The notes under the pieces were generated by a model. It searched no databases, was not told where the DNA came from, and saw only the letters and a program-made list of their open reading frames with translations. A program made the translations under genes and the position numbers. A DNA stretch of 64,000 bases from a virus (Duplodnaviria > Caudoviricetes), in IMG/VR virus record IMGVR_UViG_3300021978_000001, positions 373,491-437,490 of that record. One strand, 5' to 3'. This document shows positions 16,250 through 37,044 of the stretch, one piece after another (position 1 is the first letter of the stretch; every line of letters begins with the position of its first letter).

Positions 16250-16789
16250 ATGCAAGCACAGAGACAGACACGATTCTCGACCCCCTGGACCTTGCAGCTA
16301 CGATCGCTGCTCGATCATATCCAGGATGGGTTCATTCAGATGCCGGAGCACGAGGTCCCCACGGCTCCACCCCCCGGCTTCGATCAATACGTGCGTCTGA
16401 TCCTCCAGGGTTCCTTTGCGGGGACCTTCCATGTCGAAAATCTCTTCGAGGACGATAACGTGGTGAATCGGTTGGTCGATTACAAGCTCAACCACCTCCA
16501 GGCATTGATTCACGCTCTCGATGACACCATGCCTTACGAGCTTGATCTACGTGAGTACAACGCGACGATCGCAGCGTACCCGGAAGACCAACCGACCACG
16601 GTACTCTTGAGCGTCTTTAGCAATCGTTCGTTGATCTTCGAGGCGGGACGTGAGATGGGGGAGCAAGTCCAATTCGTGTTGGAAGCGTATCTGGACAGGT
16701 TCTATGAGGCGACGGTGACACGCGTGGATTGGTGTGAGGACCCTTCGCCTTACCTGGATATGACGCAGCGCGAAGGGCTCCCGTTCTGA
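16250..16789 (+). CDS. hypothetical protein
   Basis: Open frame 179 aa, converges on the tmk-like gene. Confidence 0.65.
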   Translation: MQAQRQTRFSTPWTLQLRSLLDHIQDGFIQMPEHEVPTAPPPGFDQYVRLILQGSFAGTFHVENLFEDDNVVNRLVDYKLNHLQALIHALDDTMPYELDLREYNATIAAYPEDQPTTVLLSVFSNRSLIFEAGREMGEQVQFVLEAYLDRFYEATVTRVDWCEDPSPYLDMTQREGLPF

Positions 16790-22881: not shown

Positions 22882-23660
22882 CAGCTTATCCTTTGGATGA
22901 AGAGACGCGCATTTTGGATATAAGCCGTACCGAGAAGCCCCGAGTCCCGGCGCCATTGGATCGCGATTTGATTGACACCGGATAACGTCGCGACCTTGAT
23001 GCCTCCATTGCTTGTCCGCACAGAACGGTAGACTTTCAAGAGGCTCAGGATAAACGTCACGTCGAGCAGGAAAGCGCTCGTTGCCGTGTTCCCATAGGTC
23101 TCACTCGTGGTCAAGTTTCGGAGCCGCGCTTGTGCGATACGGTTGGGGCCTGCGTCTCCACGAAGCTCACAGCTCCAGTAAATCAAGTATGTACCTGCCT
23201 CGAAGTCCTGCATGATACTTGCACGGGTGGCAAAAGTCTCACTCGTGGTTCCTGTTTCCGCATTCACTTCGGTATGCCAATGCTGAGACGTGATGTTGAT
23301 TTGAGCGATAAGCGCGTTGACATTCTCGCCGTTGAGGTCGCCCACGTTGTAGAGGTTGTTATTCTGGAGGTCGAGGTCTTCATCCCATGCTGCGGCCTCT
23401 TCGCTTGCTGTAGTTTCGGGATCTGAAGCGGTATGCGCAGCGATAATGCCATCCAGTTCGGTGACTTCTCCACCTGTCAATGCGGGGTCTGTCCAGACTT
23501 CGATTGAAGTTGGAGGGTTTGACATGTTATCTTCATGCTTCACGTACTCCAGCTTCGCGGCGAAGGTCGAGGCTTCGATCTCTCCACGGAGCTTGGAGAG
23601 GCTGGCGGTACCATCCAACGTATCTGTCGCAATCGTATATGTGTATACGGTAAAACTCAT
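22881..23660 (-). CDS. putative virion fibre/decoration protein
   Basis: T/S/A-rich; DLDLQNNNLYNVG fibre-like motif; beta-rich C-terminus. Confidence 0.65.
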   Translation of the reverse strand: MSFTVYTYTIATDTLDGTASLSKLRGEIEASTFAAKLEYVKHEDNMSNPPTSIEVWTDPALTGGEVTELDGIIAAHTASDPETTASEEAAAWDEDLDLQNNNLYNVGDLNGENVNALIAQINITSQHWHTEVNAETGTTSETFATRASIMQDFEAGTYLIYWSCELRGDAGPNRIAQARLRNLTTSETYGNTATSAFLLDVTFILSLLKVYRSVRTSNGGIKVATLSGVNQIAIQWRRDSGLLGTAYIQNARLFIQRIS

Positions 23661-28634: not shown

Positions 28635-28735
28635 GTATTCTGTTTGTGGGCATAGTCAGTGTCCTCCTCAGATCAGCAAGAGGGGGTTGATGAGCTTTGA
28701 CCAGGTTATCCTATTCCGATAAAGGAGAATCCCCC

Positions 28736-30785: not shown

Positions 30786-31427
30786 ATGAGGGACAACGAC
30801 AGCTACATCTATCGCAAAGGCACCACGCCCAACACGCGTATCGCGATCAGCCAGAAGAACAAGCTCTACTCGGTGGCGCGCGGCCAGACTGCGTTTAGCC
30901 AGGTCGGGCTCGTGTCGAGCTTCGGGTTGAGCGAATCGCGCGCTGTGGACGAGGTGCGTGGGATGGGTTACGGTGATCAGATCGCAGAACTCGTGCCCGG
31001 AGTCACCGGCGCCATGAGCATCTCGGTCAGCCGCACCTTGCTCTATCTCGCAAACATCTACCAGGCCATGGGATACGCTGCGGGCATTGACGGCCTCGTG
31101 CGAAGCCTCAAGCACCACCAGTGGCCCTTTGACCTCAAGCAAGAGCTGGTGTTCTCGCGCATCGCCACCAACTCGCAGAACAACCCCAAGCTCACGGTCC
31201 CCTCTTCGGATGGGGTCAACGAGGCACTCCTCGTGTTCTTCGAGGCTTGCTGGATGGAGTCCTACTCCGCCAACTACGCTTCGGACGCGGCGATGATCTC
31301 GGAAGACGTGGGCATCAAGGCTACCGACGTGATCGACGGTACCTCGACCTACGGCGAGCTTGCTTCCGATGCAGAGTCCACGGGTAACAACCCGTTCTCC
31401 GAGATCGGTTCGCTTCGCTACGGCTAA
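30786..31427 (+). CDS. putative tail tube protein
   Basis: VG.VSSFGLSESRAVDEVRGMGYGDQIAELVPG...SISVSRT...FEACWMESYS.NY; size and pattern of myovirus tube proteins. Confidence 0.65.
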   Translation: MRDNDSYIYRKGTTPNTRIAISQKNKLYSVARGQTAFSQVGLVSSFGLSESRAVDEVRGMGYGDQIAELVPGVTGAMSISVSRTLLYLANIYQAMGYAAGIDGLVRSLKHHQWPFDLKQELVFSRIATNSQNNPKLTVPSSDGVNEALLVFFEACWMESYSANYASDAAMISEDVGIKATDVIDGTSTYGELASDAESTGNNPFSEIGSLRYG

Positions 31428-31443
31428 TCCGTCGCTTTGACGT

Positions 31444-31487
31444 AAAAAAGCCCGCTCTCCTACAAAGAGAGCGGGCTTTTCTTTTTT
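31444..31487. terminator. bidirectional intrinsic terminator
   Basis: AAAAAAGCCCGCTCTC-CTACAAA-GAGAGCGGGCTTTTCTTTTTT between tube gene (+) and solitary CRISPR repeat (-). Confidence 0.9.
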
Positions 31488-31512
31488 CGGGGATGTTTGC
31501 GTGGTAACGAAT

Positions 31513-31541
31513 CGGACCATCCCCGCGCATGCGGGGAAACC
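31513..31541 (-). CRISPR. solitary type I-E CRISPR repeat (cassette 1)
   Basis: Minus strand GGTTTCCCCGCATGCGCGGGGATGGTCCG; CCCCGC/GCGGGG hairpin; no second repeat within one period. Confidence 0.9.
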
Positions 31542-31584
31542 TTTGATACAACCTGTCACACCTTACAACACCGAACTTCGCGTT

Positions 31585-31640
31585 CCTGTACCGAGTCAAA
31601 GGGTACCTCGACTTGACACTACCTGTCAAGTGTTATTCGA
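31585..31640 (-). promoter_or_regulatory. CRISPR cassette promoter copy 1 with 8-bp inverted repeat
   Basis: TTGACA(31629-24)-N18-TACCCT(31605-00); ACTTGACA-N5-TGTCAAGT; 49/56 identical to 32398..32453. Confidence 0.8.
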
Positions 31641-31844
31641 GGCTCTTCTCCTCACTATCATCTCTTTCCCTGAGATCAAGCGCAAGACCGAATCTGCGAC
31701 GGTGCGGCGACGGCCATCATCGAAGCAGACATGCGCGCCGTTGTCATCATCCCCGAGAAGTGTTCCCATGCCGTACTCGGGGTGAAGTACGCGATCTCCG
31801 CGAAACCACCAAGTTCTTTGTACGAGCGTCGTGTCTTTTGTCAT
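31626..31844 (-). CDS. small SH3-like protein (DUF3553-like)
   Basis: AAGGA RBS; GDRVLHPEYGMGTLLG...VCFDDG.RR; stop lies inside the -35 of promoter copy 1. Confidence 0.65.
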   Translation of the reverse strand: MTKDTTLVQRTWWFRGDRVLHPEYGMGTLLGDDDNGAHVCFDDGRRRTVADSVLRLISGKEMIVRRRASNNT

Positions 31845-31855
31845 GGCGCTTCCTT

Positions 31856-32113
31856 TTATGCTGGTCGAAAGTTCCCTACCGCCCACCGTAGCAGGCGTCC
31901 CATTGCCTGAACACTCTCATCTGAGCTTGCGAGCAACCTCGTAGCGGCTTCAGTAGCGCGCTGCTCTGCATCCCCCGAGGTGCCCTCGAAGGCATCCCTC
32001 ACAGCGCGCTTGACGCTTTCTGGGACGTCATTGGCGCGCTCCACAAGGTCGAGACCTTGCGTAGGATTTGCAGCCAACGCGTCGGCGTAAAATACCATCG
32101 TTGTTCGTGCCAT
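31856..32113 (-). CDS. 85-aa helical hypothetical protein directly downstream of array 2
   Basis: ATG 2 nt after terminal repeat; GAGGA SD lies inside the repeat. Confidence 0.7.
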   Translation of the reverse strand: MARTTMVFYADALAANPTQGLDLVERANDVPESVKRAVRDAFEGTSGDAEQRATEAATRLLASSDESVQAMGRLLRWAVGNFRPA

Positions 32114-32115
32114 TT

Positions 32116-32327
32116 TATCCTCGCCCCGCACACGCGGGGAACACTGGTCAATGTCTGAGCGCACGATCTCAGTGATCGGACCATCCCCGCGCACGCGGGG
32201 AACACGGTGAGGGCTGGAGCCGTCACGAGGTGGACATCGGACCATCCCCGCACGCGCGGGGAACACATCTGGTCCCAGGTCTCGGGTGTCCAGTTCACCG
32301 GACCATCCCCGCGCACGCGGGGAACAC
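32116..32327 (-). CRISPR. type I-E CRISPR array 2: 4 repeats, 3 spacers of 32 nt
   Basis: Repeats at 32299-32327, 32238-32266, 32177-32205 and degenerate 32116-32144; 61-bp period. Confidence 0.97.
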
Positions 32328-32453
32328 TCTTCAAATGTCCAGTTCCGTAAGTCCTCGGATTCTTTACAGAATCCTCGAACCCTCGCGAACCCGCTTCCCT
32401 GTACCGACTCGAAAGGTACCTCGACTTGACAGGTCGTGTCAAGTGTTATTCGA
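32328..32453 (-). promoter_or_regulatory. CRISPR leader plus promoter copy 2
   Basis: Leader ends TTTGAAGA before GTGTTCCCC; GGATTCT-N4-AGAATCC inverted repeat; TTGACA-N18-TACCTT; ACTTGACA-N5-TGTCAAGT. Confidence 0.85.
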
Positions 32454-32697
32454 CGACTTTTCCATCACTCGCAGGGATGAACACCCCCGGCCCGCGTTCG
32501 AGCACGGCGAAAAACCCCTGCTCGCCATTATGGACCCCCCTGTGCGCGGGATGGTTACGGAAAGCGACGCGTCGGCCTTTCGAGCCATCCACGGTCACGT
32601 CGATGCGGCATTTGGTGCCAGGTCCGATTTGGGCCATGTACGTGTCGGGGTCGATGATTTTGTGGCCGTAGGTGTTCGTGCCGTCTTCGTTCGTCAT
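32446..32697 (-). CDS. hypothetical protein
   Basis: GAGGA RBS; own class I promoter; stop abuts promoter copy 2. Confidence 0.65.
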   Translation of the reverse strand: MTNEDGTNTYGHKIIDPDTYMAQIGPGTKCRIDVTVDGSKGRRVAFRNHPAHRGVHNGEQGFFAVLERGPGVFIPASDGKVVE

Positions 32698-32735
32698 AGC
32701 ATTCCTCTCTTGATGGTGAGTTCACGTTACGCTTT

Positions 32736-32765
32736 ATCTATACCACAAGAGGGACAGGCCGTAAA
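32736..32765 (-). promoter_or_regulatory. recurrent phage promoter class I
   Basis: TTTACG-N17(...CTTGTGG)-TATAGAT. Confidence 0.75.
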
Positions 32766-32768
32766 GAA

Positions 32769-33257
32769 TCAATCTCCAGGCAAGAGGGAGTGACTCGGCA
32801 CATCCTTGACACCGAGCAAGGAAGGGAGGAAGGCGAGCGCTTCTTCGATCGTGGGGAAGATGAGGTCTGCGGCTTCACGGATGAACGCGTGATCCATGCA
32901 ATGCCCATCCGTCAGCCCCGCGATCACGACCAGCGTGTGCTCTTGACGCGAGGCCCACGCGATCTCGAAGGTGGTCCCGAGCGAGCGCGAGGTGGCGCCG
33001 GTGAGATCCGCGAGCAGGACATCGGCTTGCGCGACCATCCAGGAGTCCCGCCCGAAGATGGCGCGGTCATTGGAGATGGGGTCTTTGTAGCCCTTGGCCT
33101 TGGCTTCCCCTTGCCCGAGCAAGTGCTCCTTACCGAGCATCGGATGCAGGACATGGAAACCCATCGCCTTGAGGACGGTCCCGCGCTCGTGGAAGTGGTT
33201 GTAAGCGTCGTCGAGGTCGAGGCCCGTGATCGGTCCGGCTGCGTAAATGGTGGTCAT
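32769..33257 (-). CDS. nucleoside 2-deoxyribosyltransferase / NMP hydrolase-like protein
   Basis: IYAAGPITG, VLHP, D...V.QADVLLA, S.GT.FEIAWA. Confidence 0.8.
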   Translation of the reverse strand: MTTIYAAGPITGLDLDDAYNHFHERGTVLKAMGFHVLHPMLGKEHLLGQGEAKAKGYKDPISNDRAIFGRDSWMVAQADVLLADLTGATSRSLGTTFEIAWASRQEHTLVVIAGLTDGHCMDHAFIREAADLIFPTIEEALAFLPSLLGVKDVPSHSLLPGD

Positions 33258-33380
33258 GGTGTGCTACCTGTTGGTGACCCTGGGGAGGGTATCTCTCTTG
33301 TACCTCGAATGCTCCGGCCTGTCCAGTAAGCTGTGATATTTCCCTTGTAATGTGGGCTCTTTGACCCATGAGGAGGCGCC

Positions 33381-33755
33381 ATGGCTTCGGTTCGAGAAAT
33401 CCTGCACACGTATCTTGGGATGAACGTCTCGGGGAAACTCCGTGATGCCTTGATCGACATGTTGAGCTACAAGTCCCTCCCTTCCTGGGAGGATTGGCAA
33501 ACATGGTACCTCAATACAGTCGTGGAACACCTGGTTATCTTGTTGCCGGGTGCCACAGGGGACGGTCACGAAATCACGTTCACGCACTCTGAACACGGCT
33601 GGGTTCACCTGGCCTTTTCGTTTCGCACGGGTACCCAGACGCTTTGCGTGTCGATCCGAACCTCGAATCACCATGTGTGTTTGTATGAGGAAGACCCAAA
33701 CCTGTTGAGTCTTCTGGTCGTGCGCATTCACGAGACCCTGAGAGATCTATCATGA
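33381..33755 (+). CDS. hypothetical protein
   Basis: GAGGAGG RBS. Confidence 0.65.
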   Translation: MASVREILHTYLGMNVSGKLRDALIDMLSYKSLPSWEDWQTWYLNTVVEHLVILLPGATGDGHEITFTHSEHGWVHLAFSFRTGTQTLCVSIRTSNHHVCLYEEDPNLLSLLVVRIHETLRDLS

Positions 33756-34363
33756 CACTCGACGAACTCAAGACCACCTTGCTCGCCATGGGTGTTCAAC
33801 ACCCCGAAGTCAAGCTCCAGTTGCGCGCGGTGATGGATACGCTCTCGACAGGTGTCTTCGATCCCTCCCGTATCGCACGCACGAGGCGTGTGGCCGCGAT
33901 CCCCAAGAAGTACGAGCATCTCGACTTCACGCCACCCAAGGACGTGCAGGAGGCCGCAGGGCAGGGTCTCGAACTGCGTCAGGAGCAAGAGGGCGATAAG
34001 GCGGGGTTGACCAATGAAGAGGCGAGCGATCAGGGCATCGGGTCTGGTGTGCAGCGCGCGGTCAACCTCAAGAACGGGACCAAGCTCGAACCTGACACCA
34101 TCCGGCAGATGGATCGGTTCTTCAAGCGCTTCGCGTCTCTTATCGAGAAGGCGCGTCGTCTCACCAAGAAAGAGGAGATCCTCAAGTCCAATATGCATAT
34201 CAGTGATCTGCTCTGGGGAGGCGCGCCCGGTGAGAAGTGGGTCACCAAGATGATCCGCGAGATGGATAAGGCGGATGAGGCAGAGAAGAAAAAGGAGAGC
34301 GCCCTCGCACGTCGCGTCGCTTCTGTTTACCTTATGGCGCGAGGCGTGGCTCAGGGTCATTGA
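33752..34363 (+). CDS. phage head-associated domain protein
   Basis: FTPPKDVQEAA..GLELR...GVQRA.NL.NG....DTIRQM.RFF.R...LLWGG..G..W pattern seen in phage head/protease fusions; ends ARRVASVYL. Confidence 0.65.
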   Translation: MTLDELKTTLLAMGVQHPEVKLQLRAVMDTLSTGVFDPSRIARTRRVAAIPKKYEHLDFTPPKDVQEAAGQGLELRQEQEGDKAGLTNEEASDQGIGSGVQRAVNLKNGTKLEPDTIRQMDRFFKRFASLIEKARRLTKKEEILKSNMHISDLLWGGAPGEKWVTKMIREMDKADEAEKKKESALARRVASVYLMARGVAQGH

Positions 34364-34703
34364 GCGGTCGCACGCGCTCCAGCTTCACGTCATCCTGGTG
34401 CACGAGTACGCGCTGTCCTTCCTGGCGTTGGATCTCCCAGCACGCCCATTGCACATCCTTGTAGATGGATTCACACAGGTTCTTGACCTGGTTATAGGCT
34501 TCCTTGCCCTCCTGATACCAGAGACGGTCCATCGAATCCGAATCGAAGAGAAGATAGGTACGCCTCTCTTCGGGCTGAAACCCGTGCGCCTTGTATGCTG
34601 CGTCCGGCGTATCATGCTCGGTTAGATGAATCGTGAGCTTGGTTTGTGCCAGCCCATCCTCCTGTTGCTTTATCGTACCCATTTTCACACTGAGCCATGT
34701 CAT
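34332..34703 (-). CDS. 123-aa hypothetical protein directly downstream of array 3
   Basis: AGAAGGA SD begins immediately after terminal repeat; ATG 14 nt downstream. Confidence 0.7.
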   Translation of the reverse strand: MTWLSVKMGTIKQQEDGLAQTKLTIHLTEHDTPDAAYKAHGFQPEERRTYLLFDSDSMDRLWYQEGKEAYNQVKNLCESIYKDVQWACWEIQRQEGQRVLVHQDDVKLERVRPLNDPEPRLAP

Positions 34704-34717
34704 GGTTGTTTCCTTCT

Positions 34718-35162
34718 GGGGCTATCCCCGCGCATGCGGGGAATGTCGTTTCGCGCGTAAACAGGGCATCGAGCCATCCCCACAGATGTGGGGAACATAG
34801 GAGGCGAGCGCCAACATGAGACCAGATCCTCGGACCATCCCCGCACATGCGGGGAAAACATGTCCATATTCTCACCAATGAGTGAGGGCGAGCCATCCCC
34901 GCATGCGCGGGGAACACGGGTATACCCGGTATAGGAGGTATTCCTGGAATAGGGCCATCCCCGCATGCGCGGGGAACACAAAGAGTGGTGCGTGCGCGGT
35001 TCCAGACCCACCGGACCATCCCCGCACGCGCGGGGAACACGACAGCAGCGCCCACACGGGCATCACACGCCCCGGACCATCCCCGCGCATGCGGGGAACA
35101 CTCCGTCAATGAGGTCAGCATCCGCCCATATTGCGGACCATCCCCGCGCATGCGGGGAACAC
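34718..35162 (-). CRISPR. type I-E CRISPR array 3: 8 repeats, 7 spacers (32,32,32,33,29,32,23 nt from leader)
   Basis: Repeats at 35134, 35073, 35012, 34951, 34889, 34831, 34770, 34718 (29 nt each); degeneracy increases away from leader. Confidence 0.97.
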
Positions 35163-35278
35163 TCTTCAAATGTTCAGTTCCGTAAGTCCTCGGATTCCTT
35201 AAAGAATCCTCAGACCCTTCCGAACCCGGTTCTCTGTACCGACTCGAAAGGTACCTCAACAGGCCAAACCCTGTCAAG
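35163..35278 (-). promoter_or_regulatory. CRISPR leader plus promoter copy 3
   Basis: 86/95 nt identical to leader 2; TTGACA(35277-72)-N18-TACCTT(35253-48). Confidence 0.85.
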
Positions 35279-35355
35279 TATGTTTTTTCTCCAGTGGTAT
35301 TCTTCTTGTGGCGTGAGCTTTACAGGAATGACTGTCTCTCACGCGAGTTATCATC

Positions 35356-37044
35356 ATGCTACCAAAGATCACCCCCAACCTCGAACAGCGCCTCAAGCAC
35401 GAGGTGTGCGAGGTCGCGCGCCAGGGCTTGATGCAAGTCCCTTCCAAATCCCCCAACCGCATGCTTTCCAAGCTCGCAAAGCACCTTGTCGGCAAGGTCG
35501 ATCTCCCTGCGGGCGCGTTGAGCCAACAGGAAGCGTACCGCTTCGCCATGGAGCTGCTCGGGCAATGCCGCGTCGCCTTGACCGCACATGATGTCAAGAG
35601 CGCGGTCAAGGAAGTCACCGGGGACGAAAACCCCCTCGTGGATACCTCGACCGTCCAGCGTATCGCTGCGGCACTCCAGAAAGGATGCGAAGGCATGCGT
35701 GATGACGCGGAACGTGGTGCTCAGGGCGCCTTGCGTACCGTGACCAAGCTGCTTGTCCGCGATATGGCGCTCGAAGAATGGTCCGCCATGCAAGTCAGCG
35801 ATGCCATGGTCCGTGATATGCTGATCACGCTCCCGATGGCATCCGATCAGATCGCAGGATTCCTTTCGACCTATGTGTCCCGCGCCGCGAGCATTCGGCT
35901 CGTGCAAGCGCGTAAGGTCGCGCGCGCCTTCGCCATGAAGGCTGCTTGCGTGAGCTTGACAGAAAGGACTGCATGCGAGGGCGGGAACTGTGCTTGCTCG
36001 GGCGCCTGCGCTTGCGCATGTGAGGGCTACGCGAATCAGGATGCTTGTGCGTGTGCCTCGGTGACGTCGGGCATCACGATCGCCAATGCAGAAGACTTCC
36101 CAAAGAGCACCCAGGTCGCGATGAAGCGTCTCAAGAAGATCAATGAAGATCTCGAAATGCTCTCGACCAAGATCGAAAAGCTCGAAGATCAGGGCGTGGA
36201 TGCCTCCAAGCTGCATGGGAAGCGCAATGACCTCCAGGGAGAGTACGACCGCACGGTGCGTCTCTTGGAAGGCTTCGGCGTCAAGGTCGCAAAGAACTAT
36301 CCACCCGAAGTCGAACGCTACGTCGAGGAGCACAAGGCGCAAGGCATGCCTGTCGGTAAGGCATGGGCCATCGCCTGGTCGCGCTATTGCAAGTACAAGA
36401 ACCCAGGCAGCGAGCATTGCAAGGGGAAGGATTACTTCCCGGGGCGACGCTCCGCGCAGCTCCCGCGCCGTCAACCTCGTGAAGCGGGAAAGGACGACGC
36501 CAGGATGTTCAACATGGACCCCACGCGCTACACCCGTGAAGAGCGGCGTGAGATCTTGAGGGAGCGCCCCTGGCTGCATCCCCGCAACCCGAGCGCGCTC
36601 GACTATGCCATGGATGCCTTGCGCAAGCCTCTGGCGAACTGGCAAGAGGGCGGTTCCGGGAAAGGCGCGGTATTCGCGGCATACAATGCGTTGCATGAGG
36701 ACCAGAAGAAAGCGCTGGCCATGGCAAACGCCAAGGTGATGCCTTCGAGTACAGTGGCGTTCCGCTCCAGCATGAACGGTAAGACGTTCCCCTCGTCGAT
36801 GAAGGGGCAATCGTTGCATGTCGAGATCGAACCTGGCATGGCGCGGCTCGGACCCAACCATGTCCGCGCTTACCAGGTCACGCCACGCGAGGTGATGATT
36901 CACCCGGACATCCCCGGGTCTCCGCTCGGCAAGGGTGTGTGGAAGTGGGAGCGCGAGATGATCCTGATGCCGGACGCGAACCCCAAGCGTCTTTCCGATG
37001 CACAGACCGCAAAACTTCTCGATTCGATCGCCAGGAGAGGCTGA
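35356..37044 (+). CDS. multi-domain putative internal virion protein with C-terminal ART-like domain
   Basis: R/K-x-A motifs, Cys-rich linker, AWAIAWS module, C-terminal FR...GQSL...WEREMIL. Confidence 0.6.
   Translation: MLPKITPNLEQRLKHEVCEVARQGLMQVPSKSPNRMLSKLAKHLVGKVDLPAGALSQQEAYRFAMELLGQCRVALTAHDVKSAVKEVTGDENPLVDTSTVQRIAAALQKGCEGMRDDAERGAQGALRTVTKLLVRDMALEEWSAMQVSDAMVRDMLITLPMASDQIAGFLSTYVSRAASIRLVQARKVARAFAMKAACVSLTERTACEGGNCACSGACACACEGYANQDACACASVTSGITIANAEDFPKSTQVAMKRLKKINEDLEMLSTKIEKLEDQGVDASKLHGKRNDLQGEYDRTVRLLEGFGVKVAKNYPPEVERYVEEHKAQGMPVGKAWAIAWSRYCKYKNPGSEHCKGKDYFPGRRSAQLPRRQPREAGKDDARMFNMDPTRYTREERREILRERPWLHPRNPSALDYAMDALRKPLANWQEGGSGKGAVFAAYNALHEDQKKALAMANAKVMPSSTVAFRSSMNGKTFPSSMKGQSLHVEIEPGMARLGPNHVRAYQVTPREVMIHPDIPGSPLGKGVWKWEREMILMPDANPKRLSDAQTAKLLDSIARRG

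Follow-up and report, generated by a model that had tools for sequence, protein, structure and literature searches.

Trailer-side units of a phage type I-E CRISPR array are probably ageing under purifying selection

The leader-distal half of one CRISPR array in a large phage combines irregular repeats and spacers with intact hairpins, and it raises the question of whether such units are decaying relics, guides with a special role, or ordinary units that have grown old. The window analysed here makes up the last 64 kb of a virus record that is 437,490 bp long and carries direct terminal repeats; the array, array 3, comprises eight repeats at window positions 34718 to 35162 on the minus strand, with its leader upstream from 35163 onwards. 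A sequence-only reading of this locus had described the distal half as degenerate, had seen selection for Cas6 processing in its hairpins, and had proposed that its guides, being too short for normal interference, could act as silencers or decoys. Our analysis indicates that the distal stretch is probably the older trailer side of a genuine type I-E array, ageing under purifying selection. The choice between 'relic' and 'functional' is a false one here: R2 to R5 have the appearance of normal, aged crRNA units, and decay seems limited to the last unit.

In crRNA sense, the consensus repeat of array 3 is GTGTT CCCCGC NNNN GCGGGG ATGGTCCG, a type I-E architecture. The features of the locus, in window coordinates, are as follows:

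34332-34703, minus strand: ORF123, an orphan protein gene starting 22 nt past the R1 hairpin
34704-34717, minus strand: Shine-Dalgarno region AGAAGGAAACAACC, between R1 and the ATG, identical in a sister strain
34718-34746, minus strand: R1, the terminal (trailer) repeat, ACATT CCCCGC ATGC GCGGGG ATAGCCCC
34747-34769, minus strand: last spacer, 23 nt
34770-34798, minus strand: R2, ATGTT CCCCAC ATCT GTGGGG ATGGCTCG, with the A:U stem allele and a whole handle core
34799-34830, minus strand: spacer, 32 nt
34831-34859, minus strand: R3, GTTTT CCCCGC ATGT GCGGGG ATGGTCCG, its handle matching the consensus
34860-34888, minus strand: spacer, 29 nt (-3)
34889-34917, minus strand: R4, GTGTT CCCCGC GCAT GCGGGG ATGGCTCG
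34918-34950, minus strand: spacer, 33 nt
34951-34979, minus strand: R5, GTGTT CCCCGC GCAT GCGGGG ATGGCCCT
34980-35162, minus strand: leader-proximal half, with R6 (35012-35040), R7 (35073-35101), R8 (35134-35162) and three 32-nt spacers
35163-35277, minus strand: leader, with TTGACA (35272-35277), 18 nt and TACCTT (35248-35253), from a side-by-side comparison of leaders

Re-reading the distal half reproduced its earlier description: five repeats with perfect stems, the same coordinates and handles, and spacers of 33, 29, 32 and 23 nt from R5 to R1. The double change in R2 at 34770, CCCCAC/GTGGGG, was seen as well and preserves pairing. R7 and R8 are identical, R6 deviates in the loop, and the repeats from R5 to R1 are progressively more diverged. 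R1 has six mismatches to the consensus, three of them in the handle; its hairpin is whole and its handle core is damaged (G24A). Two of the spacers have internal symmetry: the 33-nt spacer (34918-34950) holds the palindromes ATTCCAGGAAT and TATACCGGGTATA, and the 29-nt spacer (34860-34888) holds a 5-bp hairpin, CTCAC...GTGAG. The leader is of a type common to four other arrays of the genome. Its promoter is putative, proposed from conservation only; TTGACA-N18-TACCTT of array 3 was not scored as a promoter by a simple sigma-70 scan.

We folded seven of the repeats (R1 to R6 and R8); all of them gave a tetraloop closed by a 7-bp stem, with free energies from -12.8 to -16 kcal/mol. The R2 hairpin was slightly weaker than the rest, at -12.8 versus -14.3 to -16 kcal/mol. 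Folding the whole distal half was uninformative, as the repeats paired among themselves. Relative to the consensus, R1 to R5 carry changes at 14/65 positions outside the stem and loop and at 2/60 stem positions (binomial P = 7e-5), and the two stem changes make up the single compensated pair of R2. The layout of a type I-E array (29-nt repeat, GC-rich 6-7-bp stem, tetraloop, 8-nt 5' handle, one orientation, leader) fits all eight units of array 3 and the 73 repeats aligned genome-wide. Rfam returned no relevant family at E <= 0.1 for window positions 31400 to 35400, which is weak evidence since single 29-nt repeats seldom score.

The phage encodes the machinery that such units would need. Its cas locus, on the minus strand at 13.6-22.3 kb of the genome, comprises Cas3 (HD domain and helicase), Cas7e, Cas6e, Cas5e and a Cse1-Cse2 fusion, and CRISPR arrays are intercalated between the cas genes. 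The fusion joins the large and small Cascade subunits in one 725-aa protein (L002:5651-7828, minus strand). Aligned to E. coli CasE, the phage Cas6e (genome 17051-17776, minus strand) keeps the catalytic histidine (YALHQ versus YQLHQ in E. coli) and the glycine-rich loop. No Cas1 or Cas2 match (PF01867 or PF09707) was found at E <= 1 in the complete 437-kb record. Based on sequence, array 3 would be transcribed from its leader, cleaved by Cas6e and loaded as units into Cascade.

The system resembles canonical type I-E systems (E. coli K-12 CasE, Thermus thermophilus Cse3) in its 29-nt repeat, predominant 61-nt period, cognate Cas6e with catalytic histidine, Cascade and Cas3. The T. thermophilus repeat naturally has a CCCCAC/GTGGGG stem. 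Unlike the canonical systems, this one belongs to a phage without Cas1 or Cas2, and its arrays are many, small and scattered and run into protein genes. CRISPR-Cas systems of huge phages usually have an effector without adaptation genes and compact arrays with a median of six repeats (Al-Shayeb et al. 2020, PMC7162821), and in the portions of that study drawn on here, the present system finds its like in both respects. Those portions mention degeneration of old-end spacers in phage arrays; they make no mention of repeat heterogeneity with stem covariation, of arrays amid cas genes or of hairpins fused to ribosome-binding sites. A BLAST search of the region against cultured phages gave no match, and a search of IMG/VR for relatives by way of a neighbouring 562-aa protein found none. 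The repeat offered no host assignment, being present in Actinomycetota, Deinococcus, Verrucomicrobiota and Burkholderiales at loci that all lack the leader.

Selection on the hairpin was evaluated across the whole genome, which holds approximately 75 non-identical repeat units, all in a single orientation, in about 16 small arrays and as single copies. The alignment comprised 73 repeats with 64 distinct sequences. Thus, the repeats within an array are not uniform here, in contrast to bacterial control arrays with this repeat, which are uniform, with 38-71 identical copies (Gordonia, Deinococcus, Verrucomicrobiales, Burkholderiales, Nonomuraea), some of them CCCCGC and some CCCCAC. In the 73 repeats, 99.7% of stem cells pair, a fraction that could be inflated by choosing repeats partly on pairing, although a pairing-free search gave the same set and every unit at the expected period was included. 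Double-sided changes were found in three of the six stem pairs (19 cells). Specifically, the fifth pair changed from G:C to A:U 15 times, giving CCCCAC/GTGGGG in 15/73 repeats, and further compensated stems were CTCCGC/GCGGAG, CCCTGC/GCAGGG, CCCCTC/GAGGGG and CACCAC/GTGGTG. G:U intermediates are present among the stems. The observed covariation score was reached by none of 500 shuffles, and no shifted pairing register came near it. The tetraloops, by comparison, are nearly saturated with transitions, 13 of the 16 possible RYRY loops being found.

Because CCCCAC alleles are frequent in this genome, in the related phage fragment G001 and in bacterial arrays, the double change at 34770 is a recurrent allele and no unique event; G001 has entire arrays of either stem allele. 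The sequence-only reading had named such a common allele as grounds against its own view of R2, and in part that is what we found. Compensating changes and G:U pairs in CRISPR stems have been described before and read as selection on the hairpin (Kunin, Sorek and Hugenholtz 2007, PMC1896005). Those changes lie between organisms; here, adjacent repeats in a single array differ in this way, as do two strains at an orthologous repeat. Two further observations belong with the genome-wide set. At genome 23127-23157 (L002:15127-15157), a 31-nt repeat has a stem that is longer by one base pair, CCCCGCG CATG CGCGGGG, a structure-preserving insertion. Single repeats are also found beside or within tRNA genes, at genome 120-128 kb and 148.85 kb (L004).

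The handle has a pattern of its own. Its core, A22 T23 G24 G25 C28 (AUGG..C), is whole in 53 of the 54 repeats that stand ahead of a spacer and broken in 7 of the 13 terminal repeats, among them every one of the six whose hairpin adjoins the start of a gene. Positions -4, -3 and -1 of the handle vary in all arrays of the genome, leader-proximal repeats included, so the handle variants of R2 to R5 fall within the tolerated spectrum. In bacterial arrays with this repeat, the last repeat base is variable too. In E. coli, this base (position -1) is derived from the PAM, and the variability at position -1 would fit such an origin here. Accordingly, the description of the distal half as degenerate applies to R1; it does not extend to R2 to R5, whose handles differ only at -4, -3 and -1 and keep the core A22 T23 G24 G25 C28 whole.

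A sister strain provided a second view of R1. On its contig (L084:1-806), at least six repeats form an array that leads, by way of a hairpin, GGAGG and an ATG, into an 88-aa ORF; a three-repeat array and then ORF123 come next. The first repeat of the three-repeat array lies directly past the ORF88 stop codon and has a weakened stem (ACCCGC/GCGGGG); the last hairpin stands before ORF123. The orthologue of R1 reads ATATT CCCCAC CGTT GTGGGG ATAGCTCC. R1 and this orthologue agree in the 5' part (AYATT), in the handle (ATAGCYCC) and over the 14 nt that lead up to the ATG; they differ in the stem, CCCCGC/GCGGGG in the window versus CCCCAC/GTGGGG in the sister, and at every one of the four loop positions. 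The earlier call for a comparison of orthologous arrays is thus answered for the terminal repeat, which is orthologous and has a swapped stem pair; the comparison covers one diverged sister array, in which orthology could be traced for the terminal repeat only. Together with the genome-wide covariation and the local deficit of stem changes, this swap bears out the earlier proposal of selection on the distal Cas6e hairpins. We regard the conclusion that purifying selection holds the hairpin as well supported.

The pair swaps could instead come from gene conversion or template switching inside the palindrome. On this account the distal units would be neutral relics, their stems restored by short-patch gene conversion among the approximately 75 repeats or by intrastrand template switching at quasi-palindromes. 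The hairpin core of R1, CCCCGC ATGC GCGGGG, is indeed identical to those of R7 and R8, and R1 and its sister orthologue differ at 6/16 core positions versus 2/13 flank positions, as block replacement of the core would produce. Palindrome repair cannot, however, yield the conservation of the non-palindromic ATGG..C core, which is whole in nearly every repeat ahead of a spacer and lost where no spacer follows. Moreover, the loops are too diverse for homogenising conversion, the absence of the reverse complements of the CTTT, CCTT and CTCT loops indicates that loop inversion is infrequent, and the G:U intermediates are those expected of stepwise compensated change. We therefore consider the neutral account quite unlikely.

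Divergence follows position in the array. In 11 arrays, the mean number of mismatches to the consensus climbs from 0.6 in leader-proximal repeats and reaches 3.5 or more at ranks 6-9. In 5/11 arrays the two repeats nearest the leader match each other exactly, compared with 2/40 other adjacent pairs (p = 0.003). Such a pattern marks arrays that grow at the leader end, the first repeat being copied and the copies ageing afterwards. Degenerate trailer-end repeats of other arrays are similar in that the farthest repeat is the most diverged, mainly in its 3' part, and that divergence grows away from the leader. Here, unlike at usual trailer ends, the hairpin of the terminal repeat is strictly preserved, and its degenerate handle passes over into the Shine-Dalgarno region of a gene in the same orientation.

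Spacer length shows a related pattern. Four of the seven spacers in array 3 are 32 nt long (the others 33, 29 and 23 nt), as are 41/55 genome-wide, and 33-nt spacers occur in other arrays too. Aberrant lengths are concentrated at the end: they were found for terminal spacers in 8/13 arrays versus 6/42 internal spacers (p = 0.0017), and three gene-coupled arrays have last units of 21, 22 and 23 nt. At genome 30948-30999 (L003:2948-2999), a last spacer has grown to 52 nt, its 32 nt being extended by an internal tandem duplication of 20 nt (GGTTCCTCGTGCAGTACACG twice). Elsewhere, two arrays carry a paralogous spacer (genome 25917-25948 and 28873-28904; L002:17917-17948 and L003:873-904) with 28/32 identical positions and four T/C transitions, and the repeats that follow it differ by a G:C to A:U stem swap. 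The differences within this spacer pair indicate that array units were duplicated and then diverged within the genome.

Published data from the E. coli type I-E system allow the odd lengths to be judged. How long the spacer is does not affect processing by Cas6e; with a -3 (29-nt) spacer, phage and plasmid are blocked as in the wild type; a -6 spacer is partly active and a -12 spacer weakly so, with some interference remaining above 20 nt (PMC5159557). By these data, the 29- and 33-nt guides of array 3 would lie within the working range of a type I-E Cascade. The claim that the distal guides are too short does not survive this comparison: a 29-nt guide is fully active in E. coli, 33 nt is a length present in other arrays, and at most the 23-nt unit qualifies.

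That last unit, R2-23 nt-R1, would be the main candidate for a different function, in which odd-length distal units would be regulatory guides (CreR/CreA/Cracr-like) or Cas-soaking decoys (Racr-like) directed at host or phage Cas proteins. Such crRNA-like regulators and mimics include CreA/CreR (PMC8501985; bioRxiv 10.1101/2023.03.10.532045), Cracr (bioRxiv 10.1101/2024.10.29.618823) and the solitary repeats of Racr (PMC10651486). What defines CreA, CreR and Cracr is that they partly match a cas or toxin promoter, which they repress without cleavage. A published prophage type I-E Cracr array with pseudo-spacers of 24 and 21 nt silences casA (bioRxiv 10.1101/2024.10.29.618823). In layout, the last unit of array 3, and it alone, is Cracr-like: degenerate repeat-like sequences surround a short pseudo-spacer, of 23 nt here. 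It also gets a whole handle core from R2, and the short last units of the three gene-coupled arrays point the same way.

The target searches give this function no such match. None of the four distal spacers had a protospacer in IMG/VR in a scan that left every sixth position free. Within the phage genome there were no self-targets, the sole match being the paralogous spacer pair of the two other arrays. We applied a Cracr-type criterion of at least 9 PAM-proximal bp complementary to a cas or toxin promoter. Seed-type partial matches were at chance level only, both in the phage genome, with its cas locus, its leaders and its promoters (promoters being where the sequence-only reading had suggested looking for targets), and in 57 bacterial loci with this repeat and related phage loci. 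Unlike Cracr, CreR and CreA, the unit thus shows no promoter match in these sequences, and unlike all of these elements, Racr included, it is part of a leader-driven array, in a phage that supplies Cascade and Cas3 itself and does not depend on host Cas proteins. Nor are the units solitary repeats as in Racr, since they belong to an eight-repeat array with a leader. The 29- and 33-nt guides are functionally not short. Finally, the last spacer of the sister is 31 nt long and barely similar, so that neither its length nor its sequence is conserved. A derivation of the 23-mer by deletion from this 31-nt spacer was considered and dropped, as the 11/14 match was equalled by 3.6% of shuffles and by one unrelated spacer. 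On this evidence, a silencing or decoy role for the distal units, as had been proposed, appears very unlikely.

The other distinctive feature of the trailer end is the gene that follows it. ORF123 is a real, conserved gene, as judged by a dN/dS of 0.14 against its sister orthologue (87% identical, dS 0.43). Searches of Pfam, PHROGs and a protein atlas assigned no function or family to ORF123 or its neighbours, and no terminator was found between array 3 and ORF123. The junction is not peculiar to this array: six arrays, array 3 included, end 10-26 nt ahead of a Shine-Dalgarno sequence and ATG, one of them preceding cas6e, and in the sister strain ORF88 is also preceded by an array hairpin and a Shine-Dalgarno sequence. 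Extra degenerate hairpins (TTCCCCAC CTTT GTGGGGA) were noted past the last repeat of three arrays (genome ~23000-23045, 28655-28690 and 16640-16665), two of them directly before a Shine-Dalgarno sequence and ATG; gene-coupled arrays therefore outnumber those that a repeat scan shows.

With no terminator between the array and the ribosome-binding site of ORF123, a Cas6e cut would free the ORF123 mRNA. Cleavage after G21 of R1 would leave it a 22-nt 5' UTR beginning AUAGCCCC, and on the basis of this arrangement the R1 cut may have a role in ORF123 expression. Carried further, the distal units would be exapted processing signals and no guides at all, with Cas6e trimming the 5' leader of the ORF123 mRNA and tying its expression to the phage Cas6e. 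The terminal hairpin 22 nt ahead of the ATG, in a junction conserved in the sister strain, is consistent with this, as are the recurrence of the layout at six or more phage arrays and at the sister ORF88 and the preference of aberrant lengths for terminal spacers. Against it, R1 alone would suffice for the cut, and the whole handle cores of R2 to R5 point to selection for Cascade loading. Folding of the uncut RNA also gave no sign that the Shine-Dalgarno sequence is sequestered, and so no evident gain from cutting. We consider a purely processing role unlikely. Similarly doubtful is a combined version in which the trailer units have been exapted twice over, the terminal hairpin as a Cas6e signal that sets the mRNA 5' end and the 21-23-nt last 'spacers' as Cracr/CreR-like regulators of a host promoter. 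If true, part of the array would be a gene-expression device rather than immune memory, and the exapted terminal hairpin would do in nature what Cas6/Csy4 RNA insulators are engineered to do.

The history of the site in relatives was examined using window positions 34320 to 35368 and contigs L086, L087 and L089-L092. Two contigs with an identical ORF123 (L082 and L083) have arrays identical to that of the window, with nothing added. No spacers are shared between the window array and the sister strain. In G001 and a 373-kb contig, the flanking genes (encoding 203-aa and 562-aa proteins) are adjacent, with a gap of 10-48 bp and no array. A third lineage has a plus-strand GTGACAGGTTGTCTCAGA leader and repeat at the site, and four assemblies break there. 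In this phage and its sister, a minus-strand cassette of putative promoter, leader, array and ORF123 occupies the site. With three states among relatives, the interval between the genes for the 203-aa and 562-aa proteins appears to be a hot spot of array insertion, and the cassette is an accessory insert with fast turnover. The distal units are not old conserved elements.

Taken as the ageing trailer side of a type I-E array, the locus may be pictured as follows. New units would be added rarely, at the leader end, and repeats, not being kept uniform, would age in place. Drift is free where Cas6e and Cascade probably do not read the sequence, which is in the tetraloop, at repeat positions 1 to 3 and at -4, -3 and -1 of the handle. 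The 6-7-bp hairpin and the handle core AUGG..C are under purifying selection, met in part by G:C to A:U pair swaps. R2 to R5 would remain ordinary crRNA units, and the last unit, a 23-nt spacer followed by R1 with its damaged handle, would be the usual decayed trailer end. The R1 hairpin may persist for two reasons: it would form the 3' end of the last crRNA, and its cleavage by Cas6e would free the co-transcribed ORF123 mRNA.

The interest of the locus lies mostly in genome-wide features, namely non-identical repeats and arrays fused to genes, of which the distal stretch is a compact example. With about 75 independently drifting copies, this one genome amounts to a natural mutational scan of what Cas6e and Cascade need: stem pairing, U5, A22 and the handle core AUGG..C appear as needed positions, and the loop, the three bases at the 5' end and -4, -3 and -1 of the handle as free ones. 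Rare acquisition shows as a clear age gradient with decay confined to the last unit, which is useful for orienting and dating phage arrays. The junction of hairpin, ribosome-binding site and gene is a testable case of CRISPR RNA processing coupled to the expression of a protein gene. Overall, the distal half of array 3 is best read as a case of normal ageing, with purifying selection at work, in a phage CRISPR system that is itself unusual.
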